Positions 39,989-58,545 are shown, counted from the stretch's first letter. The stretch: DNA of 64,000 nucleotides from a bacterium (GCA_043725085.1 JAYSLY010000007.1:1471-65470), one strand, 5' to 3'. Translations and numbers: made by a program. Notes: generated by a model from the letters alone, not told the origin.

Positions 39989-40011
39989 GTTTTAATCTTT
40001 CAAAACTGACA

Positions 40012-41731: not shown

Positions 41732-41732
41732 T

Positions 41733-41752
41733 TTCAAATTTCAAATTTATTT
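41733..41752. repeat. AT-rich palindromic repeat family (copy A)
   Basis: tttcaaatttcaaattta. Related to the repeats at 55010, 56900, 58070 and 58508. Confidence 0.4.
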
Positions 41753-41755
41753 CTT

Positions 41756-43207
41756 ATGGTTATTGCCAGAAAAATAGCCTACAACGTGCTTGTTAGCAGT
41801 ATTTCCAAGATACTTTCTACTGCGCTTGCACTTGCCGCAATTGGCTTTATCACCCGCTATTTAGGCAAGGGAGGTTTTGGTGATTATGCGACAGTTCTGG
41901 CTTTTCTTTCTTTTTTCTCTGCTGTTTCCGATTTTGGTCTTTATCAATTCTCAACGCGCGAGATTTCCCGTCCTGGGGCGGATGAAGAGGAAATCATGGC
42001 AAACGCCTTTTCAATGCGGATCATTTCCTCCCTGGCAATCTTTCTCCTTTCTTTCCTTATAATCATCTTTTTGCCCTATTCGCAGGAAGTGAAATATGGA
42101 ATCATAATTATTGCCGCGTCCCTCATCTTTTCTTCCAGTTATCAGATCCTAAACGGGGTTTTTCAAAAAAACCTTGCGATGGACAAAGTGGCCATTTCAG
42201 AGCTTTTGGGGAAAGTCGTTCAATTGGCAATTGTGATTCTAGCGGTCAAGTTGAGGCTAAGTTTTGCTTGGATTATTACCTCGTTGCTTTTTAATATGCT
42301 AGTTAGTTTTTTTCTGGTTTATTTTTGGTCTAAGAAATATATCAAGGTGCGACTAGCCTTTAATTTCTCCTATTGGAAAAAGTTCCTTTTAGAATCCTAT
42401 CCGATTGGAATTATGTCGATTGTGGTTTTTGTTTATTTCAAGGTTGATACAATCCTTTTGTCTATTATGAAAAGCAATGCTGATGTGGGGATTTATAATG
42501 TTGCCTATAAGGTGTTGGAAAACATTTCCTTTTTCCCTTCTATGATTGTGGGGCTAATCTTTCCGATTATTTCACAACATATTTTTAGCGATGAAAAACG
42601 GTTTTTTGATATTTCCAATAAAACTTTCAAGGTTTTTGTGCTTCTTGCGGTGCCGCTTGTTGTTGGCACACTTTTTCTTTCCAATGGCCTTATCTATCTG
42701 ATTGGTGGCGCGGGATTTGGCGAATCAGCTCTTGTTCTTCGCATTCTTGTTTTTGCAATGGCGGCGATATTTTTCAGTAATCTTTTTAATGCCATCTTGA
42801 TTGCAGGAAATTTGCAAAAAAAATTAATGTATGTGTTGTCGGCGGCGGCAATTTTTAATGTGCTGGCGAACTTGGCCCTAATCCCCCTCTTTTCCTATGT
42901 GGCAGCCGCGGCAACCTCATTTGTTACCGAGGCTTTTGTGGCAATCGCGGCGGGCTATCTCGTTTTCAAGCGATTAAACTATTTCCCGCGAGTGGAGAAG
43001 GTCACAAGGATTTTGCTTTCCGGAGTGGTGATGGCGGGATTTTTGTTTGTTTTTCGTGCGAGCAACTTCTATCTCTTAGGCTTTGGCAGCGTTTGTGTCT
43101 ATATTTTGGCGCTGTGGGCATTTCAAGCAGTGGAAGCCGCTGAAATAACCACTATAATTAGCAAAAAAGGCGTGGAAGAATATGAAAAGCCAATTTCCGA
43201 AAGTTAA
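41756..43207 (+). CDS. polysaccharide/oligosaccharide flippase (Wzx/MOP-family polytopic membrane protein)
   Basis: 483 aa with about 12-14 TM helices. Confidence 0.6.
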   Translation: MVIARKIAYNVLVSSISKILSTALALAAIGFITRYLGKGGFGDYATVLAFLSFFSAVSDFGLYQFSTREISRPGADEEEIMANAFSMRIISSLAIFLLSFLIIIFLPYSQEVKYGIIIIAASLIFSSSYQILNGVFQKNLAMDKVAISELLGKVVQLAIVILAVKLRLSFAWIITSLLFNMLVSFFLVYFWSKKYIKVRLAFNFSYWKKFLLESYPIGIMSIVVFVYFKVDTILLSIMKSNADVGIYNVAYKVLENISFFPSMIVGLIFPIISQHIFSDEKRFFDISNKTFKVFVLLAVPLVVGTLFLSNGLIYLIGGAGFGESALVLRILVFAMAAIFFSNLFNAILIAGNLQKKLMYVLSAAAIFNVLANLALIPLFSYVAAAATSFVTEAFVAIAAGYLVFKRLNYFPRVEKVTRILLSGVVMAGFLFVFRASNFYLLGFGSVCVYILALWAFQAVEAAEITTIISKKGVEEYEKPISES

Positions 43208-44054
43208 TATTGTTGTTCTGAATTATAATGGTCGGGATTGTCTAAAAAAATGCCTAACCAGTCTTTTTTGTTTGGACTATCCTAACTTTGAGGTGGTTGT
43301 GGTGGATAATAATTCACAAGACGGCTCGCTTGAACTGGCAAAGCTTAATTTTTCTCGCGCCACTTTCATCAAAAATGAGCAAAACCTGGGATTTTCGGCG
43401 GGAAACAATGTGGGGATAAAATATTCCCTGGAAAAGATGGCGGATTTCGTGCTTCTCCTAAACAACGATACGGAGGTAGAAAAAGATTTTCTAAGCCAGC
43501 TCATTAGGAGCGCGCAAGCGAATGAGCGGGTGGGGATTTTGAGCCCGCTGGTTTTTGGGGGTAATGGGAAGCACGTTTGGTTTTCTGGCGGAAAAATTGA
43601 TTGGTTGCGCATGAAAACCGAACATACGCAAAAACTGATCGAAAGTGATTTTGCGGAGAGTGATTTTATTTCTGGTTGCGCGATGCTAGTGCGCGCGGAA
43701 GTGTTTGCCAAGGCGGGTCTCTTGGATGAAGACTTTTTTCTATATTGGGAGGATGTGGATTTTAGTGTTAGGGCGAAAAAAGCCGGCTTCTCTCTTTTAG
43801 TTGTGGCTGGTTCTCACGTGCGCCACTTTGAAAAAAGTGAAAATATGCAGAAAAACAAGGTTTATTGGCTGGTGCTTTCCGGGCTGATTTTTTTTGATAA
43901 AAACGCTTCAGGAATGTGGCGCTGGTGGATTTTTGCCTTTGTGCTTTTGCGTAAGCTAAAAAATTGGAGAGATGTCCGAACAAGAGGGACTGAAATAGAT
44001 TTGTCCGTAAAAAAAGCGTATGGTGATTTTAAAAAACTAAAATGCGAGAAATAA
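43182..44054 (+). CDS. family-2 glycosyltransferase
   Basis: VNIVVLNYNGRDCLKKCL...VDNNSQDGS. Confidence 0.7.
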   Translation: MKSQFPKVNIVVLNYNGRDCLKKCLTSLFCLDYPNFEVVVVDNNSQDGSLELAKLNFSRATFIKNEQNLGFSAGNNVGIKYSLEKMADFVLLLNNDTEVEKDFLSQLIRSAQANERVGILSPLVFGGNGKHVWFSGGKIDWLRMKTEHTQKLIESDFAESDFISGCAMLVRAEVFAKAGLLDEDFFLYWEDVDFSVRAKKAGFSLLVVAGSHVRHFEKSENMQKNKVYWLVLSGLIFFDKNASGMWRWWIFAFVLLRKLKNWRDVRTRGTEIDLSVKKAYGDFKKLKCEK

Positions 44055-44830
44055 AGCTTTCGATAATTATTGTAAATTATGAAAGCCGAGATTATTTGGA
44101 AAAATGCTTGGCTTCTATTTTCGCGAAAATTGACCCTAGTGTACCGTTTGAGGTGATTGTAGTCAATAACAGTGCGAAAGAAACATTGAATGGGCTAGTG
44201 AGTCTTTTTGAAGGAATAAAGATTGTTCAAAACCCGCGCAACAGTGGTTTTGGCAGCGCGAATAACATGGGCGCAAAAGTGGCCAGTGGCGAGATTCTTT
44301 TTTTTCTCAACCCTGACACGGAAATTATTTCTCAAAACATCACTCAGGTGCTTAGGGAGTTTGAAAATAATCCAACCTTAGGAATTTTGGGTAGCAGGCT
44401 TATGGAGTCAAGCGAAAAGGTTCAAAAATGGAGCGCTGGAGAGCGAATTTCTCTTTGGAGCATTTTGAGAAATAATATGCGAAAAACCAAAGAGGAAAAA
44501 TCTTGGCAAAGTCTGGCAAGGGCGGAGGTGTTTTGGGTGGCGGGAACGGCCTTGTTTATTCGTCGAGCACTATTTTCGCGACTGAAGGGCTTTGATGAAA
44601 TTTTTTTTACTTATTTTGAAGATGTGGATCTTTGCAATCGCGCACACACGCTTAGCCAAAAAGTGGTCTATTTTCCCGAATTTTCTGTTTTGCATCATGG
44701 TGGGAGGAGTTTTCTGGAAAAAAAAGAACAAAAGAAAAGATATTATGCGTCCCAAGACTATTATTTTGAGAAACATTTTAATTGTTTTTGGGCAACAGCT
44801 TTAAAAATATTGCGATTTTTTAGTTTTTAA
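44042..44830 (+). CDS. family-2 glycosyltransferase
   Basis: LSIIIVNYESRDYLEKCL...VNNSAKE. Confidence 0.7.
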   Translation: MREIKLSIIIVNYESRDYLEKCLASIFAKIDPSVPFEVIVVNNSAKETLNGLVSLFEGIKIVQNPRNSGFGSANNMGAKVASGEILFFLNPDTEIISQNITQVLREFENNPTLGILGSRLMESSEKVQKWSAGERISLWSILRNNMRKTKEEKSWQSLARAEVFWVAGTALFIRRALFSRLKGFDEIFFTYFEDVDLCNRAHTLSQKVVYFPEFSVLHHGGRSFLEKKEQKKRYYASQDYYFEKHFNCFWATALKILRFFSF

Positions 44831-44833
44831 TAA

Positions 44834-46081
44834 ATGTTATTCAAGTTAATTTTAATTTTTTGTGCCTATCTGCCTTTTCAGATTGCACTTAACCCAGGTG
44901 CGGGAGTAGATTTGGCGAGCTCGCGGGTTTTTATCCTGCTTGCATTTTTTGCGTGGTTAGTGGGTAGTTTGAAAAGGAAAAAGCTAAGTATCCAAAATAG
45001 CAGAACGAATTTTTTTCTGGCGAGTTTTCTTTTTTTGAGTCTTTTCTCTGTGGTGGTTTCCAAAAACAGTGATTGGTCGATAAGAAAACTGTTATTTTTA
45101 TTTTCTGTTTTTCCGCTATATTTCGTGATAGCGGATCTTGTTTCTACGAAAGAAAGAATGTTGAAATTGGTTAAGTATTTGGTTTGGGGCGGGTTTTTTG
45201 TGGCGGCTCTTGGCATAGTTCAATTTGCCTCTCAGTTTATTTTTGGTCTTGAGAGGACATATCAATTTTGGGCCAATTATGTTTCTCCGCTTTTCTTGGG
45301 CCAAAATGTGACCCAAGCCGTGCTTAAAAACCCCAGCTGGCTTGTTAATATTTCCGGATCAACATATCTTCGCTCTATTGCGACATTTCCTGACCCGCAT
45401 ATGCTATCGTTTTTTTTGGGTATGCTTTTGCCGTTTGCCTTGGGATTGTTCCTTGTCTCAAAAAAGAAAATCTACCTATTTGTGTCTTTTGTGATATTAT
45501 TGGCGGATTTGCTGACTTTTTCACGTGGGGGATATTTAGGATTGTTTTCCGGTGGACTGGTCGCGCTAATATTACTTTTAGGTAAAATGAAAAAAAGGCA
45601 TAAGCTGGGCGTGGTTGCCTTTGCTTTTGTTTTGACCGGACTTTTGTTGGTTCCTGGGCCAATCTCTCAGCGGTTTTTCTCTAGCTTTAATTGGAAAGAG
45701 GGCTCTAATCAAGGCCGAATTGAAACTTGGAAAAAAGCCAGTGAAGTTATTTTGAAGCATCCATTGCTCGGAGTCGGTATTGGCAACTACCCGCTTGAAA
45801 TTAGCGCAACAGCAGATTATCGTGATCCAATTTATGCGCATAGTAATTATTTGGACATTGCGGCGGAAACTGGTATTCTCAGTCTTTTGGCTTGGTTAGG
45901 TTTTTTGGGCTCTCTGTTTTTCACGTTTATCAAAAGAAAGGATTTTATGTTTTTTTGTGCCGCGATAAGCATCGTTATCTTTTCTGCTCATTCCTTGGTG
46001 GAAACATCGATTTATTCTCCGGTAGTTTTGGCGCTATTTCTAATCATTGCCGGATTTGTTCGTTTGGCGAAAAACAGATGA
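44834..46081 (+). CDS. O-antigen ligase/polymerase (Wzy-like) membrane protein
   Basis: Polytopic. FSRGGYLG region typical of the Wzy_C family. Confidence 0.5.
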   Translation: MLFKLILIFCAYLPFQIALNPGAGVDLASSRVFILLAFFAWLVGSLKRKKLSIQNSRTNFFLASFLFLSLFSVVVSKNSDWSIRKLLFLFSVFPLYFVIADLVSTKERMLKLVKYLVWGGFFVAALGIVQFASQFIFGLERTYQFWANYVSPLFLGQNVTQAVLKNPSWLVNISGSTYLRSIATFPDPHMLSFFLGMLLPFALGLFLVSKKKIYLFVSFVILLADLLTFSRGGYLGLFSGGLVALILLLGKMKKRHKLGVVAFAFVLTGLLLVPGPISQRFFSSFNWKEGSNQGRIETWKKASEVILKHPLLGVGIGNYPLEISATADYRDPIYAHSNYLDIAAETGILSLLAWLGFLGSLFFTFIKRKDFMFFCAAISIVIFSAHSLVETSIYSPVVLALFLIIAGFVRLAKNR

Positions 46082-47223
46082 AAAAAATATTTAGACTGGA
46101 AAACTTAATCTATCTGACTATTTTTGCACTGCCAGTGTATCTTTGGCGGTTTAGTTTTTTCAACATGCTGGATATTTTGCTGGGCGGGTGTATTATTGGC
46201 GGACTACTCATTTATCATAAAAAATTTTCCCCTAAGACATTTTTTGATAAATATAGGGCGATCATTTTTTCTGCCGGGCTTATTCTTGCGGGTTTGGTTA
46301 TTTCGGTTCTTTGGAATAAGAATTATGCGGTAGGTTTCGGGATAGTTAAAAGCTGGTTTCTATTGCCAGTCCTTTTTTCTATGGTTGTTGGCGGTGTGAT
46401 TGAAAAAGAGAGGCTTAGGAATATTTTTTTCGCCTACTATTTGAGCGCTTTTTTGGTGGCATTGATTTCTTTGGCCTATTATTTTTCAGGAATGGTGACT
46501 TTCGATTTGCGGCTTCAAGGTTTTTTCAATTCGCCAAACTATTTGGCAATGTATTTGGCGCCGGCAATTTTTATCGGCTGGTCTTTGTTTCAAGAGACTG
46601 CGTTAAAAAGAAAACCACTATTTGTTTTTTTGGCGCTAGTGATTTTTCTTGCGCTTTATCTGACCCGTTCTTATGCCACTTGGCTGGCTCTTTTTGGCGC
46701 GCTTGTTTTTGTTTTCGTGTTGGAAAAAAAGCTGAATTGGAAAAAAGCGCTCGCTACGTTGCTTTTTTTGTGCGCACTGTTTTTTTCGCAGATGGGGGAA
46801 AAGAAATTAACTGATCTTTTAAGTTTTAATGAACGCTCTTCCTTGGAATCTCGCATAATGATTTGGCGTTCAGCGGAAAAGATGCTGGAGAATAGCTGGC
46901 TTTTGGGAATTGGCGCTGGTAATTTTCAAACAAAATATTTGGAAAATCAGAAATATTTTTCGCCATATCTAGAGTGGGCTGTTGCGCATCCGCACAATCT
47001 CTATCTGACTTTTTGGCTTTATGGAGGAATTTTTGGTGCGGCTGGCTTTTTTGCGCTTATCTATTTTTGGTTTTTGGGCATTTTGCGCACACAAAAAAAT
47101 TCCCAACTCAGATTCATCGGGCTGGGAATTATGGGCTATATCTTGCTTTGTGGACTAGTAGACACAACTTATTTCAAAAACGATTTGGCAGTCGTGTTTT
47201 GGCTCTTATTTGTACTTCTTTAA
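46078..47223 (+). CDS. second Wzy-like O-antigen ligase-family membrane protein
   Basis: Start ATG 46078 overlaps the upstream stop (ATGA). MKKIFRLENLIYLTIFALPVYLW. The ORF-track start at 45892 is an overlapping extension. Confidence 0.5.
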   Translation: MKKIFRLENLIYLTIFALPVYLWRFSFFNMLDILLGGCIIGGLLIYHKKFSPKTFFDKYRAIIFSAGLILAGLVISVLWNKNYAVGFGIVKSWFLLPVLFSMVVGGVIEKERLRNIFFAYYLSAFLVALISLAYYFSGMVTFDLRLQGFFNSPNYLAMYLAPAIFIGWSLFQETALKRKPLFVFLALVIFLALYLTRSYATWLALFGALVFVFVLEKKLNWKKALATLLFLCALFFSQMGEKKLTDLLSFNERSSLESRIMIWRSAEKMLENSWLLGIGAGNFQTKYLENQKYFSPYLEWAVAHPHNLYLTFWLYGGIFGAAGFFALIYFWFLGILRTQKNSQLRFIGLGIMGYILLCGLVDTTYFKNDLAVVFWLLFVLL

Positions 47224-47245
47224 AAGATCCCGGGAGTGATTAGGC

Positions 47246-48394
47246 TTAGAGGGTTATGCGATAGAGTTTTCCGTCTATTCTGTTTGTGAAAAACAAAATA
47301 CTTTCGTTAATGTCCAGAAAGGGATTTGCCGCGTCATATTTTTCGGTGATTTTATTTAAATCAATGATGCGATTTTTTTCTCCGGTGGTTGTGTTAATTT
47401 TCCAAAATGTATCGGTAGTGTGGAATTTTTCTTGGTCGTAGTCATTTGGCATGATGGCAGACGCGGGGACTTCTCCGGGCATTGCGCAATAAACAGTCAC
47501 ATTATCCTTGGCCCATGTGCATTTGGAGGTAAGTGAGGGAAAATCGAGATTCTTAAATTCACCGCCATTGGAATTGATCGTGGCAAGTTGGATTTTTGTG
47601 GAGCCTTTAGTGTCGGAATAGCTGACAAGAGCCATTGTTCCATCTTTATTCCAAAGATAGTCTGCTCCGAAAATGCCTTTTAGAAGGCTTTTTTCTTCCC
47701 CGCCAATTAGGGGAACTGATTTTAGGGTGGTTTCAAAGAAAGAATCGGGCTTGTTCCAAAAAGAAACTAAGCTACTTTTCGGGATTTGCGCAATCGAAAC
47801 ATTGCGAAAATCGATATCAGCCAATTTTGTCCAATTGGTTCCGTCCGGATCAGAGATGTTTAGGGTTCTTTTTTTGGTGGCAGCGTCGTAGTATTTGTAG
47901 AAAATACGGTTACTGCTATTTTGCCAGGCGATTTCGTCTACATTTTTCTTAAGCGGTGTGCTTTGTAGCGTGGTGTAGTCGTAGGAATAAAACTTTGTCG
48001 CTCCGGCACTCATAAATTTTGTGATTACTTTATTTTTGTCCGGTGACCACGAAACATCAGAAATCCCAATTAGCTCTTTGTCGGAAAAGGTTCTTTTGTT
48101 GTTGCCATCAAAATCAATCTGGTAGACTCGCCCGCTATTTTTGGAATAATATTTGATAGCATCACTGCCGCTGGCAAGTGTCGGGGAAAGCACGGCTTCA
48201 TCGGAAATGGCGGTTATGGGGTCGGTGCTGACCTTTGGTGGAATCTGGGGAGCGACAATTGTCGGAGCTTTTATTTCCGGGGCCTGAGCGACTTCCGTTG
48301 GTTTTCTAAACGCTAAATTATAGACACCAAAAAACAGCAGTGCAACGCAAAAAAGCGCAAGAGAAATAAAAAAGATTTTTTTGTTGAGAGGCAT
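47246..48394 (-). CDS. membrane-anchored beta-propeller (TolB-like) repeat protein
   Basis: N-terminal TM helix. Repeated D..G.....F motifs. Confidence 0.4.
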   Translation of the reverse strand: MPLNKKIFFISLALFCVALLFFGVYNLAFRKPTEVAQAPEIKAPTIVAPQIPPKVSTDPITAISDEAVLSPTLASGSDAIKYYSKNSGRVYQIDFDGNNKRTFSDKELIGISDVSWSPDKNKVITKFMSAGATKFYSYDYTTLQSTPLKKNVDEIAWQNSSNRIFYKYYDAATKKRTLNISDPDGTNWTKLADIDFRNVSIAQIPKSSLVSFWNKPDSFFETTLKSVPLIGGEEKSLLKGIFGADYLWNKDGTMALVSYSDTKGSTKIQLATINSNGGEFKNLDFPSLTSKCTWAKDNVTVYCAMPGEVPASAIMPNDYDQEKFHTTDTFWKINTTTGEKNRIIDLNKITEKYDAANPFLDINESILFFTNRIDGKLYRITL

Positions 48395-48412
48395 GGATTA
48401 GATTAGTTTAAT

Positions 48413-49279
48413 TTAATATCCTCGTTGACAATTATTGGTGCTGACATGCACATGATTTGCTTCACTTGACTCATCTTTGATGGATTTGTCTGATATGCCA
48501 CATTCTTTGGCAGCAGTCGTTATGTTTCCGACAGTTAAGCCTGTTGTGGTGGAAATGTCGACTGCTTCTGATTTTCCTCCGGCCACACCTCCATAATGGC
48601 AAGAACCTTTTTCGTGAGCACATGGCGGTTTGGCGTAGCCGGTGCCGCTGCACTTATCTAGTCCAGCGCTATCTGAAATGGAATTGATGGTCATTTTTGA
48701 TCCGAGCTTGTTTCTCAGACAAACAATGAGTGTTTGCAAAGAAGAAGACGCATCGCCCATTTGAGAATCAATGCCTGATTGAAATTTGAAATTTTCTTTG
48801 GAATAGCCGGATATTGGCGCTTCAGTGGAGGGAGTCAGGGAGCCAACGGATGAGCTGGTGGTTGAGCAAGAAAAGCTGGTCCAGCTTTTTCCTTCAATGC
48901 CAAAGGCACCTTTATCGCCTTCTTTTTTAGCGGAAAATACCCAAAAAACAGTGTTGATAATGAGCCAGGCACCAAGCATTAAGGAAAATCCAATCACAAC
49001 ACTTTGGATAAAACCTTTGGCTTTTGTGGCAAAAGTAGGGTCACCGGAGGAAACGACATACATGATGCCGGCGATGGATATGCCGGTTATGGAAATGGTT
49101 ACAATTATTTTCATTCCCCAATTGATGAGACCTTGAATTCCGATGAGAAAATGACAAAGCGTGCATGGGTCGGTTGCGCCAAGGCCGCAAGGAACGAGTC
49201 CACTGGCGGCATTAGCTTGAGAAAAGGTAAGAAGGAAAAGAGAGAAGCTGAAAAATAGAAAGAGGATTTTTTTTAGCAT
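48413..49279 (-). CDS. secreted protein with pilin-like topology (signal peptide + two hydrophobic helices) fused to a LAS-type (M15/M23-like) metallopeptidase-like C-terminal domain
   Basis: N-terminal LVPCGLGATDPCTLCHFLIGIQGLINWGMKIIVTISITGISIAGIMYVV. C-terminal SCHYGGVA...AVDI and ANHVHVS (SxHxxGxA..D and HxH). Confidence 0.4.
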   Translation of the reverse strand: MLKKILFLFFSFSLFLLTFSQANAASGLVPCGLGATDPCTLCHFLIGIQGLINWGMKIIVTISITGISIAGIMYVVSSGDPTFATKAKGFIQSVVIGFSLMLGAWLIINTVFWVFSAKKEGDKGAFGIEGKSWTSFSCSTTSSSVGSLTPSTEAPISGYSKENFKFQSGIDSQMGDASSSLQTLIVCLRNKLGSKMTINSISDSAGLDKCSGTGYAKPPCAHEKGSCHYGGVAGGKSEAVDISTTTGLTVGNITTAAKECGISDKSIKDESSEANHVHVSTNNCQRGY

Positions 49280-49291
49280 AAAATTTTTTAA

Positions 49292-49741: not shown

Positions 49742-49771
49742 AGCAGTAAGGTTATAATTTAATTTTTTTGT

Positions 49772-50869: not shown

Positions 50870-50884
50870 TTATATATCTCTGTT

Positions 50885-53761
50885 TTAAAATTCATCGAAC
50901 GTTCTTTTTGGTAGCACGAAAAAAATGATTTTTATGGCGAGAATGATAGCGAGTCCGGAAAGGGCCATGCGGAAAAGAAAGGCGAAATAGCTGGGGATGC
51001 CGGAAGAAACAGTCGCAAGAACTTTTCCGGGTGAAGTTTCTTTTTGAGAAAGCGTTGTGTCATTGCTTACCATTTCAATTTCAATGTTATGCGTCAATTT
51101 CTTCTCATAGAATTCATTATAGGTGACATCCCAATATTTGTTAAGCATTTGGCGCATCGAGTTGGTGGGTGTGAAGGTGGTGGAGAGAGAGATGATATAT
51201 TTTTCACCAACATTTTTTGGCGGAAGGGTTAATCTTCCAAAGTGCGCCGTGTCAATCATGTATCCATAGTTCCTGGCATTGTCGGCGTTGATAGTTGTGC
51301 CATCAATATTCCATTGATAGGGACAATTTGATGATTGACCGGCAGTGTCATTGAAATTTTCTGTTCCAACTGTTCCGGAAAAGACAGGTGTTAGCACTAT
51401 ATTATTTCCCGTTCGTGCCTGAAAACTTGTGTCGCTGTGATCAGGATAGGACGTGTTGTTGAAATCTTTATATTCCCCCAAAACTAAACCGAGACAAGTT
51501 GGCTTGCCCGAAGTGTCCTGGTTATCCTTTCCTTCCGGCACAATTTTTACGTCCGGCGATGAGATTTTGAAAACTTTGCTTAGATCGATTCTTTTTCCGG
51601 TTGTTTTGTTGAGTGCGGACAGGCTGATATTATATTGATCACCAATGTTTTTTAGGACAGGAAAATAGATGGTAGTTCCTGTTTTGCCACTAGCATCAAA
51701 ACAGTCTTTGAAATGTTCGTCAGCGCAAGTCAATGGCGCTCCGTCAACTGTCCAAAGAAAATCAGTGTAGGTTGGGTTTGCTGCAGTTCCATTGTCAATT
51801 TTCATTCCAATCAGTTCATCTTTTGCTACTTCGCAGACTGCTGCTGGCACCGGGCTAGTTGTTATTGAGCCATCGGATTTTTTTTCCGGTATGTCTGCAA
51901 GGCATCTTTCATCACTGGTTCCGCTGGCGTTAATTTCTGCGGTAGGCGTTGCATCGGATTGATTGAGGTAGACAAGGCCTGCTGTATAAACCTTAATATA
52001 TTCTCCGGAGGAAGAAATTGGCGTGGTGATGTCGGCGTGACCTTCTCTTTCCGCTCCTCCTCCGGCGAGAGTTTCTTTTACAGTCACTTTTACTTTGAGA
52101 TATTTTTTCGGGCTTGGGAAATTTAAATTGAATTTAAGTGTATTAATCCCCAATCCGGAGGTTTGCGTGGATCCATCTAGGGCAGTTTTTGGAAGTGGAT
52201 TTCCCCAGTCGTCCGGATTTGCTTCATCGCTGGCATAAACTTCCCATGTGTAGCTGAGGTAGGCGGCGTTGTTGGCGTTAGGAACTGAAGCGGTGAGGCT
52301 GAGCGTATCACCGTTTTTACTGGAAGAGGTATCGTTGATTGGATTTTCCGGTAAATATTTGAGTGAAACGTCAAGTTTTTCTTTCGCGCCTCCTCCCTCG
52401 GTGGGTGTTACGAGATTTTCATAAAGACAATCATTCAAGTTATTAATATCAAAATTAGTCATTTTGATTGACTTGTATTCATCGGCTCCTGAGCAGCCGG
52501 TAGTGCCACTTTCCAGTTCGCTCGGAGAGCAGGTGTGGCTTGTGATTGTTTCATTCAGTTGAGTCTCGCTCAGTAATTGTGGGTCTGTACCGACATAGGT
52601 CACGACAGTGTGGATGGTGGTAGTTGTTCTGATTGTGGCATTGTCATTAACTTGGTTTGTGTTAGGAGCAATATCCTCAACTGTTTTTGTGGAAATGGTT
52701 GTGGTGTAGTCTGTGGCGGCGGGAGGCGGAACGCTTGTGCTTCCGGAAATTGCTTTTGTGTTTGGGTAGGTCGTGGTGGTGTCTTCGGTTGTTTTTGGAT
52801 AATCGGAATTACCTGTGCCTGCTTTGATATTATTTTTGTCGCCACATGTATTTTTAGTGAATGCCCACATAGTTTCATAGGATGAGTCAGATATTTGGGT
52901 TGGTTGAATTGAAACGCCTTCTACGGCAACGCCGACCTGATCTCCTGCCGAATAGGAAAAGGAAAAAACATTTTCACCTAAGCCAACAATATTGGCTTCA
53001 TCGGGATGGCCTGTTCCGGCCGTGTCTTTATTTTTTGGATTAGTGTGCCAAAATTTTTCCTCGTTAGCGTCAAATTCATTATCACCGGTTGTATGTCCGG
53101 GAGCGTTGGGGAAAAGATGGTGGCACGCTATTTCATTGTCATCGCCACTTTTAACATCATGCACGAAGCAGTGTTCTTTTTTACCTCGTTGGTCATCTCC
53201 GCCAAAAGGGGCACTGTATCCATCATTGTCAGTGTCACTGGAGTAATCGGCGTTTTGCCAGTCGAAATCATTACTAGCCAGTATTCGCATAGCTTTCATT
53301 TTGTAGTCTTCGATATCAACCTCACCGTCTCCATTGAGATCACAGGCCTTAAAATCATCACTTTTTTTGTAGTCAGAAGTGTATTTGTCGTGGTCTAGTT
53401 TGTCATCAAAGCATCTGGCGCTTTTGATATACCACGTGAAATAGAGGTTTTCCGGCATATTCATGAAGTAGGATGGCGTGGTGGTGACAGTCACTTTTTC
53501 CCCCGGCACTGGGTCGACCGGATCAAAGGTGAGTGAAACAGTGGGGGGCGTGACTTTTTTTCTGGCAACATTGACTGATTTCATCGTGTTTTGTATCTCG
53601 TCTTTGTTGACACCAAAAGCGCCCATGACGGTGTCCATAAGCGCCATTGGATTACCCAAGGCAACGCCCAATAGATCGGCGTGAGCCGGCGCGGCGGTCA
53701 GTGAAAAAATATTGATGATAACCAAAAAAGTGATTATGGCTTTTTTAATTCTTGTTTTCAT
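50885..53761 (-). CDS. large (~958 aa) surface protein with a signal peptide, acidic Ca-binding-like repeats and a C-terminal TM anchor
   Basis: Start at the ATG giving MKTRIKKAIITFLVIINIFSLTAAPAHA. DLNGDGEVDIEDY and DTDNDGYSAPFGGDD repeats. C-terminal LSGLAIILAIKIIFFVL. The ORF-track start at 53899 is an upstream extension. Confidence 0.5.
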   Translation of the reverse strand: MKTRIKKAIITFLVIINIFSLTAAPAHADLLGVALGNPMALMDTVMGAFGVNKDEIQNTMKSVNVARKKVTPPTVSLTFDPVDPVPGEKVTVTTTPSYFMNMPENLYFTWYIKSARCFDDKLDHDKYTSDYKKSDDFKACDLNGDGEVDIEDYKMKAMRILASNDFDWQNADYSSDTDNDGYSAPFGGDDQRGKKEHCFVHDVKSGDDNEIACHHLFPNAPGHTTGDNEFDANEEKFWHTNPKNKDTAGTGHPDEANIVGLGENVFSFSYSAGDQVGVAVEGVSIQPTQISDSSYETMWAFTKNTCGDKNNIKAGTGNSDYPKTTEDTTTTYPNTKAISGSTSVPPPAATDYTTTISTKTVEDIAPNTNQVNDNATIRTTTTIHTVVTYVGTDPQLLSETQLNETITSHTCSPSELESGTTGCSGADEYKSIKMTNFDINNLNDCLYENLVTPTEGGGAKEKLDVSLKYLPENPINDTSSSKNGDTLSLTASVPNANNAAYLSYTWEVYASDEANPDDWGNPLPKTALDGSTQTSGLGINTLKFNLNFPSPKKYLKVKVTVKETLAGGGAEREGHADITTPISSSGEYIKVYTAGLVYLNQSDATPTAEINASGTSDERCLADIPEKKSDGSITTSPVPAAVCEVAKDELIGMKIDNGTAANPTYTDFLWTVDGAPLTCADEHFKDCFDASGKTGTTIYFPVLKNIGDQYNISLSALNKTTGKRIDLSKVFKISSPDVKIVPEGKDNQDTSGKPTCLGLVLGEYKDFNNTSYPDHSDTSFQARTGNNIVLTPVFSGTVGTENFNDTAGQSSNCPYQWNIDGTTINADNARNYGYMIDTAHFGRLTLPPKNVGEKYIISLSTTFTPTNSMRQMLNKYWDVTYNEFYEKKLTHNIEIEMVSNDTTLSQKETSPGKVLATVSSGIPSYFAFLFRMALSGLAIILAIKIIFFVLPKRTFDEF

Positions 53762-54420
53762 TTCGTAAGATAAATAATATACGCGTCTAGGAATATTATA
53801 ACAAAAATACTCATAAAATACGAATAGAAAAATGATTTTGTTTTGTAGGCAAGAAATCCTGCGGTGACTGAGAGTAGGACAAGTGAGGCTGATTGCCAAG
53901 AAAGGGCTTTAGTAAAAAAAAGTAGCGTGAAAAATAGAATTGCTTGCACAGCAATTGCCCAATGTTTGAATTTTTTTTGCAAAACAGAAAGGAGAAAGCC
54001 TTGGAAGAAAAAACTGGAAGCAAAAACTGTGAAATTGACGATTAATAATTCATAGGCTAAAAATAGCCAAAAATTGTTTTTTATGTAATCTGATAATGTG
54101 TAGTTAGCCTTAAATTGGGTGTAATTTAGCATTAAATACAGTAAAAAAAGTGTAAAAAGTGCGGTGATTGCTCCCCAAGCCAGAGAAGTTATTGGATTTT
54201 TCAGATTGCAGCCAAAATCGGCGAGATCTTTTTTCAGAATAATTTTTACATAAGCAATCGGGAGAAGAATGAGAAAAAATAAGTTTTTTGTGATAGTTTG
54301 TACGGAGTTTTGGGTGGGAAAAACAGCGCTGGAGAAAAGACAAATGAGCGCCAGACCAAAACCGACCAGCAGTTCTTGGTTATCTTTCAAAAAATTTCGT
54401 GGTGTTTTTTGGCGGTACAT
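53758..54420 (-). CDS. polytopic membrane protein, possibly a CPBP/Abi-family-like intramembrane protease with degenerate motifs
   Basis: Six to seven TM helices. YELLIVN...FQGFLL and FKHWAIAVQ. Confidence 0.3.
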   Translation of the reverse strand: MYRQKTPRNFLKDNQELLVGFGLALICLFSSAVFPTQNSVQTITKNLFFLILLPIAYVKIILKKDLADFGCNLKNPITSLAWGAITALFTLFLLYLMLNYTQFKANYTLSDYIKNNFWLFLAYELLIVNFTVFASSFFFQGFLLSVLQKKFKHWAIAVQAILFFTLLFFTKALSWQSASLVLLSVTAGFLAYKTKSFFYSYFMSIFVIIFLDAYIIYLTK

Positions 54421-54436
54421 ATAAGTTAATGCTGCG

Positions 54437-55006
54437 CTAGTCTTGGTAGGCGTAGGCAGCTGTCATTCGGGCGGCTTCTCTTTGTTCTTCTGCGGCGGCT
54501 TCTCTTCTGTTTTTTAGGATTAAAATAAAAATAACAAATGTCGTGATTGTTTCCAGGGGAAGAAAGTCTATGATAGGCAGCATTTCAAGAACGGTGCCGG
54601 CAATGAGAACTTTCCATTTATCAGGAGTAAAAATACTTTTTATCATGGATCTTTTCTTGCTTTGGCGCAACCCGGCACCGCAAAGAAGCATAGCCGCCCA
54701 GGTAATAATTCCGGCCATAAAGGCTGTAACTACGCCAAGAAGCTGTAGGCCAGGAACGGCATTTGCGACAAAATCGACAATGTCTTTCAGGAGAGAGCTC
54801 ATTATGGCAATGGCAAAAAAGAAATCTGTGAGCTGGATAAATTTTCTAAGATGTTCGGTGTCGGTAACTTCGGCTTCTCTGGCGATTTCATTGGCTAGTT
54901 TTCCTAGACTCTTTTTTTGCTTATTAACTTCAAGCTCTCTCTTTTTTTCTGCATCAGCCGCTCTTTGCGCCTCTAGGCGTTGTTGGTTTTCTTCTTCTTT
55001 TGACAT
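54437..55006 (-). CDS. membrane protein with a charged coiled-coil N-terminus (possible T4SS accessory component)
   Basis: N-terminal EENQQRLEAQRAADAEKKRELE, then three TM helices. Confidence 0.35.
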   Translation of the reverse strand: MSKEEENQQRLEAQRAADAEKKRELEVNKQKKSLGKLANEIAREAEVTDTEHLRKFIQLTDFFFAIAIMSSLLKDIVDFVANAVPGLQLLGVVTAFMAGIITWAAMLLCGAGLRQSKKRSMIKSIFTPDKWKVLIAGTVLEMLPIIDFLPLETITTFVIFILILKNRREAAAEEQREAARMTAAYAYQD

Positions 55007-55009
55007 ATC

Positions 55010-55045
55010 GCATAATTTGAAATTTCAAATTTCAAATTTAAAATT
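55010..55045. repeat. AT-rich palindromic repeat (copy B)
   Basis: aatttgaaatttcaaatttcaaatttaaaatt immediately upstream of the ATG at 55006. Confidence 0.45.
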
Positions 55046-55052
55046 ATGGAGC

Positions 55053-56897
55053 TTATTCTTCCTCGCTAAATTCCTTCTTTGCCCTTTCGATGTCTAGCAG
55101 TTGCGACGGGTCGGTAGTGATGATTTGATCTTCAGAATAGGACGCAACGACTTTGATGGCGACGTGATTTGTGCCGGCAAAAAAGATGCCCTCTCCCACG
55201 TTGCTTTCGAGGAGCAAGAATTTTTCTTGATCAGTGAGATAGAATGTGTCAGAAATCACATCAATTCCGGCCGGCGATTGCTTGAGCAGGAGCTGCAAAG
55301 ACGAGTTGGTCACAATCGCTTTGCCATAGCGAGAAGAAAGAAAGTCGTTCACATCTTGTGTGATGGTGGTGAGTCCGGTGAAATATTTTCGGCAGCGCTT
55401 GGCGATACCAAAAAGGAAAGAAGCGGCGTCTTCATATTTCATCATTACCCAAGCTTCATCAACCAAAACTAGGCGCTTTTTCATGTTGGTGCGCATTTCA
55501 TTCCAGATAAATTGCAAGATGGTGTACATAGCAACCGGACGCAATTCCTCTTCCATATCGCGGATATTAAACACCACCAGCTGATTATCAACTTTAATGT
55601 TAGTGGCGTGATTGAGAAATCCGGCGAAAATTCCTTCGGTGTATTTTTCCAGGCGAACAGCCAAAACCTCTCCGCCGTCCAGGCTGCGCAAGACTTGATA
55701 GAGGTCGGACATTGTTGGGAAAGAATCTTTGCTTAAAGCATTTAAATCCGCTTCCGCAGTGATGTCTCTAATTGAATAAGTTTCGTGGATTGCTCGATCC
55801 AAAACAGAATCTTCTTCCGGAGTGATTGATCCGAGCATGATGTGGAGTAGTCCCAGGAGATTGGCAATGTTATTGCGCAAAATATCTTCCGGGTCATCAT
55901 CTTCTCCGACATGCGGCAGGTCAAAAGGATTGAGATGGTTGGTCGAATTGAGGGAAATCTTGATGAAAGTTCCTTCAACAGTGTCGCAGAGGTGACGGTA
56001 TTCATTTTCCGGGTCGATAATGATGACATCAGTGCCTACCATCATCGAACGCAAAACTTCCAACTTGACGGTATAACTTTTTCCCGCTCCAGACTTGGCA
56101 AAAACTACCATGTTAGCATTTTCCATTCCAAAACGGTCGAAAATAATCAAGCTGTTATTGTGGCGGTTAATGCCATAGAGGATTCCTGTATTAGATGAAA
56201 GAGTGGAAGAGACAAAAGGAAAGGTGGTGGAAAGCGGTGAGCTATTCATGTTTGTTCCCACGTCTAACTCGTCGTTGGCAAGGGGTAACGATGAGTTGAA
56301 GCCTTGTTCTGATTTGAAAACAGCCGGTTTGACATAGACTAATTGGGCTTCCAAAATAGCCTCAATGCTTTTTATGTTTTTCGTAACCGCTTCTTCGCTA
56401 TCGCCATAGGCGGTGATGTAGAGGGAAAAACGAAAAAATTTTTCTGTGCCTTGTTGCAGCTTATCTCTGAGTTCATCAATATCTTGTTGAGCGGTTTCCA
56501 GAGCGGGGTCTCTGATGAGGCCTTTGGTTTGTTCGATTTGAATCTGTGATTCAACTTGAGTGGCGCTTTTTTTCAAAGTTTTCAAAATATCATAGGTATC
56601 GACCGGATGAATAAACATGGAGATGTCAATCGGCATATCGATATTTATAATGGGAGAAAACCAATTACTGTGCAAATAGCGCGGATAGGCGATGATGAAG
56701 ATGGTTTGCGCAATCGTTTCTCCGATGCGAATCGATTTCGGCATAATTCTGATTGCGGCGGGAGCGATGATGTCGTTGAGCTTGGCCAGCCCTTCTTGAT
56801 AATATTTTTCCGATTCCAAAACCTCGTCTTGCGGTTTTGCGACTTTTTTTGCGGGAGCGGTTAGGCCCTCATCTTTTTTAGCGAATAAATTTAGCAT
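55053..56897 (-). CDS. virB4: VirB4/TraE-family type IV secretion ATPase (ATPase portion)
   Basis: AYPRYLHSNWFSPIINIDMPID. Walker A VVFAKSGAGKSYTV. Walker B region LVLVDEAW. Confidence 0.8.
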   Translation of the reverse strand: MLNLFAKKDEGLTAPAKKVAKPQDEVLESEKYYQEGLAKLNDIIAPAAIRIMPKSIRIGETIAQTIFIIAYPRYLHSNWFSPIINIDMPIDISMFIHPVDTYDILKTLKKSATQVESQIQIEQTKGLIRDPALETAQQDIDELRDKLQQGTEKFFRFSLYITAYGDSEEAVTKNIKSIEAILEAQLVYVKPAVFKSEQGFNSSLPLANDELDVGTNMNSSPLSTTFPFVSSTLSSNTGILYGINRHNNSLIIFDRFGMENANMVVFAKSGAGKSYTVKLEVLRSMMVGTDVIIIDPENEYRHLCDTVEGTFIKISLNSTNHLNPFDLPHVGEDDDPEDILRNNIANLLGLLHIMLGSITPEEDSVLDRAIHETYSIRDITAEADLNALSKDSFPTMSDLYQVLRSLDGGEVLAVRLEKYTEGIFAGFLNHATNIKVDNQLVVFNIRDMEEELRPVAMYTILQFIWNEMRTNMKKRLVLVDEAWVMMKYEDAASFLFGIAKRCRKYFTGLTTITQDVNDFLSSRYGKAIVTNSSLQLLLKQSPAGIDVISDTFYLTDQEKFLLLESNVGEGIFFAGTNHVAIKVVASYSEDQIITTDPSQLLDIERAKKEFSEEE

Positions 56898-56899
56898 GT

Positions 56900-56972
56900 A
56901 ATTGTGAATTTGAAATTTGAAGTTTTAAATTTAAAATGAAATCGAAATTACTAAATTTTAAATTGAAAATTT
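56900..56972. repeat. AT-rich palindromic repeat (copy C) forming the 75-nt gap that splits VirB4
   Basis: gaatttgaaatttgaagttttaaatttaaaatgaaatcgaaattactaaattttaaattgaaaatt. Confidence 0.45.
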
Positions 56973-57659
56973 TCATTTGAGTTCCATCTTCTCCGTATCG
57001 ATATAGCCTTTAGTGTCGAAGATGGTCGGATTGTAGGCATTAAACAGCAGTTCAATCAGCTCGGGGGTTTTCAGGGGAATGATTTTGACGCCAATGCCGG
57101 AAAGTCCGGCGGTGAGGTGATCGACTCTTTGATAAAGTTGGCTTTTGTATGTTTCAAATGTTTCTCTTTTTTCCAGGATGCTTCTTTTGGGATTCAGCAT
57201 GTTGGAAAGATTGCTCAGAAAACTTCTGTCTTGATTTTCCATGGGAGAAAATGGCACGACTATGTAGAAAGTTTTGTCCATAATGTCAGACATGGAGACC
57301 AATTGGGTGATAAAATTTTTATATTCTGAAATTTGCAAACGCATCAGTTCAGTTTTTTGTTGTTTTTCTTTGGTAGTTAGAAAATCAATATAGGTGTCGA
57401 TGTTCAATTTCCGTGAGCTAATAAGAACTTGCATCGGAAAGTCAACTGAGTTGAGGAAATTTTGATATTGGCTGATGATAGCTTCTTGTTCATCGGTGGC
57501 CTTGAGTTCAAAATTGATCGCGGAAACAGCTAAAACTGCCCTCATCGAGCCGTTTTTAAGCACAATCACATCTTCTTTGACTTCTGCCACATCAAGATAT
57601 TGCTGGGTCGGCGAAGCGGCGGATTGTTTGGCGAGCTTTTGAGAATATAGTTTTTCCAT
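56973..57659 (-). CDS. VirB4 N-terminal domain (CagE/TrbE/VirB family) encoded as a separate ORF
   Basis: QYLDVAEVKEDVIVLKNGSMRAVLAVSAINFELKATDEQEAIISQYQNFLNSV aligns with the canonical VirB4 N-terminus (IVLLEDGSIMSIARIDGVAFELEEIEMRNARCRAFNTLMRNI). Confidence 0.6.
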   Translation of the reverse strand: MEKLYSQKLAKQSAASPTQQYLDVAEVKEDVIVLKNGSMRAVLAVSAINFELKATDEQEAIISQYQNFLNSVDFPMQVLISSRKLNIDTYIDFLTTKEKQQKTELMRLQISEYKNFITQLVSMSDIMDKTFYIVVPFSPMENQDRSFLSNLSNMLNPKRSILEKRETFETYKSQLYQRVDHLTAGLSGIGVKIIPLKTPELIELLFNAYNPTIFDTKGYIDTEKMELK

Positions 57660-57665
57660 TGATTT

Positions 57666-58067
57666 TTATTTTTTCCTTATGTCTAATAATTGCGAAATAT
57701 CAGCGACTTTTTGAGCGTCAAATTTCTTTTTTGTAACGACTGAAGCCGCATTTTCTTTTTTGTCGATGGTGGTTTTTTGAATTTTTTCCGTGACGCGGCG
57801 CCAGATATACATTTTTGGACGAGTAGCAAAAAGGACTGAGGAAAGAATGAATTTAATCAGCGGTTGGTTGTAGGGGCGATAAAAGGCCAATGCTCCAAAA
57901 ATGACGGCGATGATAATGGCGGAAAGAATGAAAGCGGATTGGTCGAGTGTTCCATAGCAAATCAAAAGCACAACTCCTCCGGCGGCTAACCAGCCAAGTT
58001 GTCTGGCGGTCAGCGGACCGACGATTTTGTCTTCAATATCGATAAATTGGGGGACGTTGAAAATCAT
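57666..58067 (-). CDS. PrgI-family (VirB3-like) small membrane protein
   Basis: NVPQFIDIEDKIVGPLTARQLGWLAAGGVV followed by two TM helices. Confidence 0.55.
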   Translation of the reverse strand: MIFNVPQFIDIEDKIVGPLTARQLGWLAAGGVVLLICYGTLDQSAFILSAIIIAVIFGALAFYRPYNQPLIKFILSSVLFATRPKMYIWRRVTEKIQKTTIDKKENAASVVTKKKFDAQKVADISQLLDIRKK

Positions 58068-58069
58068 GA

Positions 58070-58128
58070 ATTTGAAATTTAAAATTAGAAATTTGAAATG
58101 AAATTTTAATTTCTAAATTTAAAACTGT
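58070..58128. repeat. AT-rich palindromic repeat (copy D)
   Basis: gaatttgaaatttaaaattagaaatttgaaatgaaattttaatttctaaatttaaaa. Confidence 0.45.
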
Positions 58129-58130
58129 GT

Positions 58131-58505
58131 CTATTGGGTTTCTTTGTTTTCTTTCAGTGTCAGGGCTATTTTTGAAAATATCAATGTTAGTTCTTGTGCT
58201 TCTTTCCAGAGTTTTCTGCCTTCTTCTTTGTGTTCAGGATTGGATTTTGCAAGGAGTTCTAGCCAATATTTTGTTTCTTTGCACTCCTTTTTGCAGATAT
58301 AGATCTTATTGTGGAAATCCTTTTTTGAGCTTGCTCCGTTAGCTTCGCAGTAATTCGCGCCTATGCTGGTCGCAGAACGAACCAGTTGGCTCATCAGTGG
58401 AGTGTTTGTGATGTCTCTGCTTAATTTTTTAATAAAAACAATTACCTCTTCACTAAACTTCAGAGTTCTGGACTCTAAATCATACTTTTCCGAATTTTTT
58501 GTCAT
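58131..58505 (-). CDS. four-helix-bundle protein (TIGR02436-type, formerly '23S rRNA intervening-sequence protein')
   Basis: SATSIGANYCEANGASSKKDFHNKIYICKKECKETKYWLELL. Confidence 0.6.
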   Translation of the reverse strand: MTKNSEKYDLESRTLKFSEEVIVFIKKLSRDITNTPLMSQLVRSATSIGANYCEANGASSKKDFHNKIYICKKECKETKYWLELLAKSNPEHKEEGRKLWKEAQELTLIFSKIALTLKENKETQ

Positions 58506-58507
58506 TT

Positions 58508-58545
58508 AATAATTTAAATTTTGATATTGATTTAAAATTTCAAAT
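58508..58545. repeat. AT-rich palindromic repeat (copy E)
   Basis: aatttaaattttgatattgatttaaaatttcaaatttaaaatt. Confidence 0.4.

Follow-up and report, generated by a model that had tools for sequence, protein, structure and literature searches.

The window analyzed here, a 64,000-nt stretch of bacterial DNA (GCA_043725085.1, JAYSLY010000007.1:1471-65470) to whose full length all positions refer, contains five intercistronic gaps that consist of degenerate tandem arrays of the self-complementary heptamer AAATTTN. The account given below centers on these arrays, on the minus-strand gene cluster for a type IV secretion system (T4SS) of the Gram-positive/candidate phyla radiation (CPR) type among whose genes they occur, and on a small gene of the four-helix-bundle (4HB; 23S_rRNA_IVP / S23p) family inside that cluster. 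By Pfam and NCBIfam matches, the cluster also encodes TrbL-like and pilin-like proteins; its nearest homologues are those of Candidatus Moranbacteria / Moraniibacteriota, and the host is a Moranbacteria-like CPR bacterium. In addition to the features listed below, the operon segment concerned holds an open reading frame (ORF) of 390 amino acids (aa), which lies upstream of the slot occupied by the 4HB gene, and another one of 189 aa.

54437-59718, minus strand: host operon segment with Pfam and NCBIfam matches, co-oriented genes and short gaps
58131-58505, minus strand: 4HB / 23S_rRNA_IVP gene; PF05635 E = 1.2e-19, TIGR02436 88.6 bits (cut-off 24), PDB 2rld E = 4e-15
57666-58067, minus strand: PrgI (Pfam/NCBIfam)
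56973-57659, minus strand: TraC-like N-domain ORF, 228 aa (Pfam/NCBIfam)
55053-56897, minus strand: VirB4-like ATPase ORF, 614 aa (Pfam/NCBIfam)

As judged from these matches, the gene at 58131-58505 is not a T4SS component. It is found on the same strand as the operon, which is the sense orientation also seen for the intervening sequences (IVS) of 23S rRNA genes. The 20 cluster ORFs scanned gave no match to a transposase or recombinase/integrase domain, and no DNA-binding regulator domain was detected in the 20 neighboring ORFs, nine of which are without a Pfam match. The arrays themselves, numbered R1 to R5, are the following.

58506-58556, minus strand: R4, candidate 5' cassette arm; AAATTTN array with the added segment AAATCAATATC; extends between the stop codon of the 390-aa ORF and the 4HB ATG
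58068-58130, minus strand: R3, candidate 3' cassette arm; extends between the 4HB stop codon and the PrgI ATG; folds locally at -8.9 kcal/mol (z = -1.95)
56898-56972, minus strand: R2, gene-less copy, apparently decayed in part; located between the ORFs of the TraC-like N-domain and the VirB4 ATPase
55007-55052, minus strand: R1, array of ~4.6 units; between the VirB4 ATPase ORF and the 189-aa ORF; hairpin of -9.3 kcal/mol, z = -1.8
41729-41755, plus strand: R5, 2.7-unit mini-array with jag/khpB on one side and a polysaccharide-biosynthesis (flippase-like) gene on the other; 0 kcal/mol

Between co-oriented ORFs the arrays fill their gaps from stop to start (41732-41755, 55007-55052, 56898-56972, 58068-58130 and 58506-58545), and they finish 0-8 nt ahead of the start codons. 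Tandem Repeats Finder places period-7 repeats at 41730-41748, 55014-55045, 56900-56937, 56952-56973, 58069-58124 and 58530-58553, with 2.7-8.3 units across all five sites. An earlier note, made from the sequence alone, had described these sites as related to a perfectly palindromic 20-mer, four of them in front of T4SS-cluster genes and a weaker one after jag. The sites exist, and their sequence and coordinates check out: at three or fewer mismatches the 20-mer has 11 matches, every one of them at the sites that the note had named, versus 0.20 expected, and none of 100 shuffles gave as many. In its exact form the 20-mer, AAATTTGAAATTTCAAATTT, is absent, and its best copies, at 55013 and 55020, have one mismatch. 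The copy at 58508-58545 precedes the 4HB gene and thus not a T4SS component, and the weak copy that the note had placed after jag at 41733-41752 is present a little to the left, at 41729-41748. The sites are palindromic because the hexamer AAATTT is self-complementary and is repeated in tandem with one spacer base (G or C); the underlying feature is a tandem repeat of 7 nt rather than a single dyad site.

A similar density in other gaps, which by the earlier note would have indicated simple AT-rich low complexity, is not seen inside the window: four of the five arrays lie within 14 of its 60 gaps (hypergeometric P = 0.009), and 55 of the 60 gaps are array-free. R5 lies outside the secretion cluster, which shows that the AAATTTN family is not confined to the T4SS. 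The units are degenerate, with longest perfect runs of 2-3 units, which sets the arrays apart from phase-variable contingency repeats. Head-to-tail period 7, occurrence at multiple intergenic loci and variation at orthologous sites place them among the heptanucleotide simple-sequence repeats known as short tandemly repeated repetitive (STRR) sequences or long simple-sequence repeats (LSSRs). Rfam families have no match anywhere in the window, rRNA included. A further heptamer array, (ATACTAN) x 3.9, is found at 28482-28508 just upstream of the ATG at 28511, so that heptamer arrays of other units are also present in this genome.

The 4HB ORF is bracketed by an inverted repeat of 41 nt (R4 arm versus 58083-58123; repeat search), whose 76% complementarity is inflated by the self-complementary units and whose enclosing stem, the hallmark of the 23S rRNA IVS, has a non-significant z-score; in other lineages such flanking inverted repeats are clear. 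The comparison loci are numbered L002-L081 and L202-L211 for CPR T4SS loci, L083-L200 for loci with the AAATTT(G/C) pattern and L224-L227 for plasmids. When joined, the window flanks R4 and R3 are colinear over ~110 nt with the gene-less R2 of L204 and L002: R4 is colinear with the left half of these gene-less copies, and R3 closely resembles the right half (TTTTAAATTTAGnAATT..ATTTCATTTCAAATTTCTAATTT). Because the colinear stretch includes non-periodic segments, AAATCAATAT... and TTTAGnAATT..ATTTCATTTC, the 4HB ORF would be located at the tip of a hairpin. The gene-less R2 orthologues fold as long A-U hairpins of 108-122 nt, with energies of -29.1 kcal/mol in L204 (z = -3.9), -21.2 in L002 (z = -3.2) and -20.7 in L209 (z = -3.0), which are matched by only 0-2 of 200 shuffles.

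The window was compared with 80 metagenomic loci, in which VirB4 is 55-95% identical, and with eight targeted look-ups. In most relatives, the operon gaps measure 0-30 bp, and genomes whose VirB4 is 93-95% identical have either arrays of other lengths or compact, array-free gaps of 4-25 bp. For instance, L210 and L211 (VirB4 93-94% identical) have gaps of 25/4/25/11/9 bp and no arrays. L002, L208 and L204 have AAATTTN arrays of differing lengths in the same four gaps (a unit scan finds seven arrays in 15.8 kb of L002), and L206, L209 and L202 have them in some of the four. The AAATTTN arrays are absent from L210, L211, L003, L005 and L004, of which L003 and L005 hold different elements. The R2 gap is 75 bp in the window, 122 bp in L002, 121 bp in L204, 108 bp in L209 and 61 bp in L206, with a 14-nt (two-unit) gap between L209 and L204; R2 is absent from L210 (25 bp, array-free), L211, L004 and most other loci (gap 0-30 bp). 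The R1 gap is 46 bp in the window, 44 bp in L002, 45 bp in L202 and 147 bp in L204, and its array is absent in L206, L209 and L210. The slot between the 390-aa gene and PrgI varies in content as well.

Window and L204: array, 4HB gene and array
L002 and L208: GIY-YIG gene with a different inverted repeat of its own, inside the same outer arrays
L206: a single array of 44 bp, gene-free
L210: 25 bp

The 4HB proteins of the window and L204 are 87% identical, and the slot is gene-free in L206, L202, L209, L210 and L003. The comparison shows arrays that are dispensable and turn over fast among close relatives, behaving as selfish or neutral DNA would and not as a regulator binding site would. Since the arrays vary or are missing at orthologous gaps, the comparison argues against a conserved operator and also against an obligatory initiation signal. 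Other T4SS gaps of relatives are filled by another repeat family, which is palindromic and rich in GC (CTTCTCCCGAAGGGCGAAGGGGA, to which the copies of relatives add ATATAAATAAAACC): it occurs at L002:7006-7191, L003:7928-8000, L005:1960-2158, L204:3796-3908 and L204:7282-7530, and once in the window, outside the cluster, at 15604-15630.

Similar arrangements are found across CPR T4SS loci. In 62.5 kb of intergenic DNA from these loci, 31 period-7 arrays were detected versus 0.2 in shuffles; periods 8, 9 and 14 are likewise in excess, and the units are lineage-specific. A jackhmmer search identified 14 4HB genes in CPR T4SS loci, all of them co-oriented with the operon. The inverted-repeat score of the flanks is at least 17 for 11 of the 14, the 99th percentile of 822 other genes being 16.7 (Mann-Whitney P = 2e-7), and several of these flanks have non-palindromic units, such as GATTTTAGATTGATGAT / ATCATCAATCTAAAATC in L058. 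The pattern is similar for GxxExxY (PDDEXK_3, TIGR04256) and small GIY-YIG genes. Of 21 small cargo genes, 12 have short-period arrays on both flanks, versus 35 of 783 other genes (Fisher P = 7.5e-11). Cargo genes end no more than 2.6 kb upstream of the VirB4 ATPase in 19 of 23 cases, a zone that makes up 16.9% of the sequence (P = 9e-12), and 21 of the 23 are co-oriented with the operon. The pile-up around prgI could reflect an insertion hot spot or an accessory role. The 4HB proteins are 18-61% identical across loci, with several different ones within one locus, and this divergence suggests repeated insertion rather than inheritance from a single ancestor. On the same grounds, it is unlikely that the 4HB genes of the prgI slot are vertical orthologues. 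CPR rRNA insertions carry 23S_rRNA_IVP genes too, mostly at the top or base of a stem-loop (PMC11270868).

Plasmids of cultured isolates provided a second data set. A tblastn search with the window 4HB protein against PLSDB returned 29 records, mainly of Nostocales, and also of Planktothrix, Euhalothece, two Bacteroidota, a Treponema and Chlorohelix. Short tandem repeats adjoin the gene in all 12 plasmid 4HB regions inspected, as read by eye and unscored. The inverted heptamer arms are ATTCGTA / TTACGAA and AATTCAA / TTTGAAT in Nostoc flagelliforme and CCAGTTA / ACTGGTC, with 12.6 copies, in Euhalothece; they are also clear beside the 4HB gene of Aulosira. Composite arrays flank the gene on both sides in Planktothrix, and in Bernardetia and Treponema the flanking repeats are in direct, not inverted, orientation. 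Some of the plasmid 4HB genes sit inside operons, between the genes for an adaptor and a permease of the resistance-nodulation-division type, between those for a helicase and a methylase, or between cas2 and cas1. In a wider context of 118 kb from cyanobacterial plasmids, each of the five 4HB genes has a period-7 array no farther than 63 nt away on either side, and the units of the two flanks are reverse complements in four of the five, the Planktothrix arrays being composite. By our tally, 9 of the 13 strong period-7 arrays in these 118 kb adjoin a 4HB gene, and gene-less inverted array pairs 70-143 nt apart are also present. Among the heptamers that bracket 4HB genes as inverted arms in L224-L227 are AATTCAA, ATTCGTA and AATCCCC, the last of which is the STRR1 unit CCCCAAT in rotated form. 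Small cargo genes are associated statistically with inverted short-period arrays in both data sets, which are independent of each other.

The heptamer AAATTT(G/C) also occurs outside this setting. A scan of species-representative genomes for AAATTTNAAATTTNAAATTT gave at least 120 stretches, whose taxonomic counts represent a sample and not a census; the matches listed span many phyla, and some of the loci have a GC content of 58-66%. Many of them are plain intergenic arrays beside housekeeping genes, with groES and trmD among the unrelated genes flanked, and the motif is not T4SS-specific. About a quarter of the 120 listed loci have inverted pairs 14-110 nt apart, of which that of L158 folds at -32.6 kcal/mol (z = -8.1). 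In 33 of the 120, an array lies in frame within a long ORF, at least 90 nt from its ends, and encodes inserts of the KFQISNF / KFEISNL / KILNLKF type. Pfam domain matches span the insert in UvrC, RecJ, MnmA and LpxK, and the LeuS ORF that contains an insert was confirmed. Examples of stretches with such in-frame arrays are the following.

L188:4451-6391
L168:3420-5381
L200:3501-4565
L161:4480-5535
L133:715-3192

Such AT-only tracts are also present in genomes of 58-66% GC, and they look inserted rather than grown in place. As a general marker of 4HB genes the AAATTTN arrays were rejected, with a 4HB match in only 3 of the 120 listed loci and with housekeeping genes, such as groES, trmD and one for a tRNA-editing protein, as the ORFs between paired arrays in other phyla. 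In L177:6600-6750, L094:20-200 and L116:6380-6520, neighboring heptamer arrays grade unit by unit into each other, the series in L177 being CCAAATT, TCAGATT, TCAAATT, TCTCATT and TCTATT; it looks as if these arrays had mutated during extension.

We consider it probable that the AAATTTN arrays of the window represent labile, selfish, IVS-like hairpin cassettes and their remnants, which form a lineage-specific AT-rich family in intercistronic gaps. Their tandem-heptamer nature, their position between cistrons, their lability and the colinearity of gene-loaded with gene-less copies are direct observations. We propose that the one complete copy consists of inverted array arms with a promoter-less 4HB gene at the hairpin tip, co-oriented with the T4SS operon, and that the other copies may be gene-less, partly decayed versions of the same hairpin. 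The copies would be co-transcribed in the operon mRNA and would fold into A-U stem-loops at the stop/start junctions. By analogy with the Coxiella IVS, these stem-loops would be likely substrates of the double-strand-specific RNase III, whose cutting might free the cargo mRNA and sever or stabilize parts of the polycistronic transcript. Array length may change by slippage in 7-nt steps, for which the 14-nt gap between L209 and L204 could be an example. We also propose that arrays are tolerated directly before start codons because A/U-rich sequence fits the Shine-Dalgarno (SD)-independent initiation of this genome.

The closest known system is the IVS of 23S rRNA genes in Coxiella burnetii and Leptospira (PMC4990558). 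In the 23S IVS of C. burnetii, the loop that holds an S23p ORF is closed by an inverted-repeat stem of 28 bp, which is cut by RNase III, and the ORF is preceded by 2-3 tandem GACAGAT heptamers whose number varies by strain (PMC4990558). The window cassette shares with this group of IVS the PF05635/TIGR02436 cargo in sense orientation within the predicted host transcript, the proposed placement of the ORF between inverted repeats in a stem loop, the tandem heptamers of variable unit number directly upstream of the ORF, the sporadic occurrence among close relatives and an AT content higher than that of the host. It differs in its host site, which is a T4SS intercistronic gap and not helix 9, 25 or 45 of 23S rRNA, in its arms, which are nearly all degenerate heptamers and pair weakly, and in its gene-less copies in neighboring gaps. 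RNase III cutting is established for Coxiella and only predicted for the window cassette. The earlier note had also suggested an RNA-processing element, which the hairpin-forming, IVS-like build makes plausible; cleavage itself is suggested by analogy with rRNA IVS cut by RNase III (PMC4990558).

Heptamer repeats and IVS-type 4HB cassettes are known kinds of element, found here in a new setting. In a literature search of partial coverage, we found no description of bacterial AAATTT(G/C) arrays, and none that links heptamers or STRR sequences to 4HB genes or places them as inverted arms around such genes, save for the heptamers of the Coxiella IVS. With a cassette, the presence of a non-T4SS gene inside the operon and of gaps larger than those of relatives would be explained, and the tempting regulatory reading of the T4SS gaps would be removed. 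Heptamer repeats and the abundant genes for 4HB "IVS proteins", both of them widespread, appear as one physical unit in CPR metagenomes and in cultured cyanobacteria; if general, this would bear on the over-representation of 7-nt repeats in bacteria and on the role of the 4HB family. It also matters for annotation, as cassettes split operons and heptamer tracts in ORFs give odd peptide inserts.

Several observations weigh against the cassette interpretation. The window R2 itself folds at only -6.3 kcal/mol (z = -0.7), R4 and R5 are without a fold, and for the window cassette as a whole (503 nt) z is -0.27, its minimum-free-energy and centroid folds showing only a closing stem of ~10-13 bp. Because AAATTT is self-complementary, any two arrays look inverted, so that the evidence for inverted arms consists mostly of the colinearity and of the lineages with non-palindromic units. 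Covariation analysis by RNAalifold, on three long orthologues only, gave another register and zero compensatory pairs. The analysis turned up no mobility enzyme and no target-site duplication, nor an empty and a filled site that could be paired at identical sequence resolution. As for a miniature inverted-repeat transposable element, the arms are inverted, but their ends are undefinable in pure A/T repeats, no target duplication is recognizable, and nothing points to a transposase-encoding parent: the sole cargo is the 4HB protein, and the cluster is without transposase. The L206 slot has an array without a gene, so that arrays may predate the gene. In the other phyla, a 4HB match was found in only 3 of the 120 listed AAATTTN loci, two of them judged adjacent; with so few 4HB neighbors, the arrays can exist independently of the cassette.

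A wider conjecture, which we regard as unlikely but put forward for its reach, is that bacterial heptamer arrays (STRR sequences, LSSRs) may largely represent inverted arms and relics of one pan-bacterial class of IVS-like cassettes. Such cassettes would encode 4HB proteins linked to Avd, the accessory protein of diversity-generating retroelements, would settle at hairpin tips in rRNA genes or between cistrons, with a hot spot at prgI/virB4 in CPR bacteria, and would have their arrays made or maintained by the 4HB protein or a partner enzyme. If true, array-making of this kind would also explain the occurrence of AAATTT(G/C) in many phyla and, in frame, in essential genes.

Among the rival explanations, that of plain simple-sequence repeats survives best, although we judge it improbable. 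It holds that the arrays arose by polymerase slippage in AT-rich gaps and are neutral filler with no identity as an element and no link to 4HB genes. Heptamers are described as the over-represented long simple-sequence repeat in bacteria, and slippage has been proposed as their source (Mrazek, 2007, as cited in PMC4679880 and PMC4692102); heptamer excess is thus a known bacterial trend, as far as these citing accounts convey it. Further cases conveyed in the same secondary form are the STRR heptamers of heterocystous cyanobacteria, from Calothrix (Mazel, 1990, via PMC4692102 and PMC4679880), and GGGAATC in Xanthomonas (PMC4679880; PMC4692102). Like the cyanobacterial STRR sequences and LSSRs, the window arrays have a 7-nt unit in 3-10 copies, are intergenic and occur at many loci, with lineage-specific units and length variation between relatives; unlike them, the window unit AAATTTN is self-complementary. 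In this analysis, STRR-type arrays were also found to bracket 4HB genes on plasmids of Nostoc, Planktothrix, Aulosira and Euhalothece. The excess of lineage-specific period-7 arrays in CPR intergenic DNA (31 versus 0.2 in 62.5 kb), the length differences between relatives and the L206 array without a cargo gene all favor plain repeats. Slippage, however, does not account for the non-periodic segments that the copies share over their colinear ~110 nt, nor for 4HB flanks that are mutually inverted even where the unit is non-palindromic (CPR loci, Nostoc, Aulosira and Euhalothece), and local slippage offers no explanation for AT-only arrays in genomes of 58-66% GC and in frame in essential genes.

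Still less probable is that the arrays serve as translation-initiation leaders, i.e., A/U-rich unstructured landing pads (for S1 or a cold-shock-type protein) in front of SD-less genes, a role close to the replacement of Shine-Dalgarno sequences that the earlier note had suggested. The arrays do stop 0-8 nt before start codons in a genome whose gene leaders are 42% A and 33% T in the window. An SD-like 4-mer precedes 8 of the 58 window genes versus 12% of random 17-mers, a rate equal to random, which indicates that the whole genome is SD-poor with A/U-rich leaders. There is a precedent for the hypothesis in the TAACTGA repeats of marine Beggiatoaceae, which lie upstream of start codons and for which translational regulation has been proposed (PMC4679880). 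These repeats resemble the window arrays in having 2-6 heptamer units within a few nt of start codons, in gaps without SD sequences, and in being scattered over phyla and occasionally present in ORFs; they differ in being non-self-complementary and mostly of one orientation, and no cargo gene or hairpin architecture is described for them. The idea of SD replacement lacks specificity for the arrays: orthologues without arrays are also without SD, the same genes in close relatives start after ordinary, array-free A-rich gaps of 4-25 nt, and 55 of the 60 window gaps do without arrays. Furthermore, self-complementary arrays would add structure rather than remove it, and arrays are also found inside ORFs of other genomes.

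It is very unlikely that the arrays act as outward or antisense promoters on a miniature mobile element of the Correia type, with TTGAAA-N16/17-TAAAAT firing against the operon. The terminal repeats that define Correia elements measure 26 bp, and the target duplication of these elements is TA. Of the seven promoter-like matches that score best in 10.5 kb, three do lie within arrays of the window, all on the plus strand (55017-55044, 56910-56937 and 58057-58085, each 10 of 12 positions). Consensus matches in pure A/T sequence are, however, weak evidence; 33 sites were found versus 19.6 expected by chance, and the arrays of relatives carry other spacer bases. The Correia or NEMIS elements of Neisseria are reported to be able to bind RNase III, to be cleaved or protected by it, and to create promoters (PMC2649163). 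For the gene-less window copies they are an analogue that works in a like manner, being hairpin-forming repeats of ~100 nt between co-transcribed genes, but they have no sequence relation to the window arms, which are tandem heptamers.

That the arrays are operator sites at which a dimeric regulator, as the earlier note had proposed, or a nucleoid protein coordinates T4SS expression is more doubtful again, and this reading appears largely refuted by comparative absence. Dyad symmetry and several copies in one operon (clustering P = 0.009) speak for it, as do the heptad repeats that are reported to bind regulators in the ctxAB promoter of Vibrio cholerae. An operator would be expected to keep its palindrome in position and sequence, but L003, L005, L210, L211 and most of the 80 loci have either no such arrays or other ones, and array length varies. 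They are also intercistronic and away from the best sense-strand promoter match of the operon (63938-63909), there is no regulator domain among the 20 cluster ORFs scanned, one copy precedes the non-T4SS cargo gene, another lies outside the cluster, and elsewhere the arrays flank unrelated genes.

Equally remote is an integron-like system, in which hairpin repeats flank exchangeable promoter-less genes that are swapped as single-stranded DNA: the slot contents do vary between conserved outer arrays (4HB gene in the window and L204, GIY-YIG gene in L002 and L208, none in L206) and the cargo genes share the orientation of the operon and lie close together (19 of 23 no more than 2.6 kb upstream of VirB4, P = 9e-12), but the 20 cluster ORFs scanned include no integrase or other recombinase domain, the arms as read from the sequence show no attC-like GTTRRRY core (R''/L''-L'/R'), and the different inverted repeat of the GIY-YIG gene itself indicates nested insertion and not exchange.

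The gap that holds R2 separates two ORFs of VirB4, which lie in the same frame with four stop codons between them (55053-57659, minus strand). The ATPase ORF is 587-628 aa long in all of the 120 best homologues, and VirB4 is written as two genes in every related locus, including those with a gap of only 0-25 bp. Because the two-gene form is universal among relatives, the split is ancestral in this CPR group and does not mark a pseudogene. The possibility that the 75-bp repeat had split an intact virB4 was ruled out, as the best 120 homologues and all related loci share the two-gene form.

Two further regions of the window were observed. The region at 36666-40374 resembles a replication-origin region: the sign of the GC skew switches close to 38 kb, and AT-rich gaps span 37827-38104 and 39491-40011. 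By position only, a 461-aa ORF and a 386-aa ORF on the minus strand correspond to dnaA and dnaN, and a 120-aa ORF and a 265-aa ORF on the plus strand are possibly rnpA and yidC; they are followed by jag, in which the domain scan found R3H and KH domains. At 7770-7830 and 8332-8392 (minus strand), an identical 32-nt leader, GTCAAGCTGAGAAAACGGTTTCTCGGGGAGAC, precedes two small genes that lie next to each other (7422-7769 and 7939-8331). The SD-like motif AAAGGAG, which is rare in this genome, comes after each leader, and neither leader has an Rfam match; the two may be an unrecognized cis-regulatory RNA.

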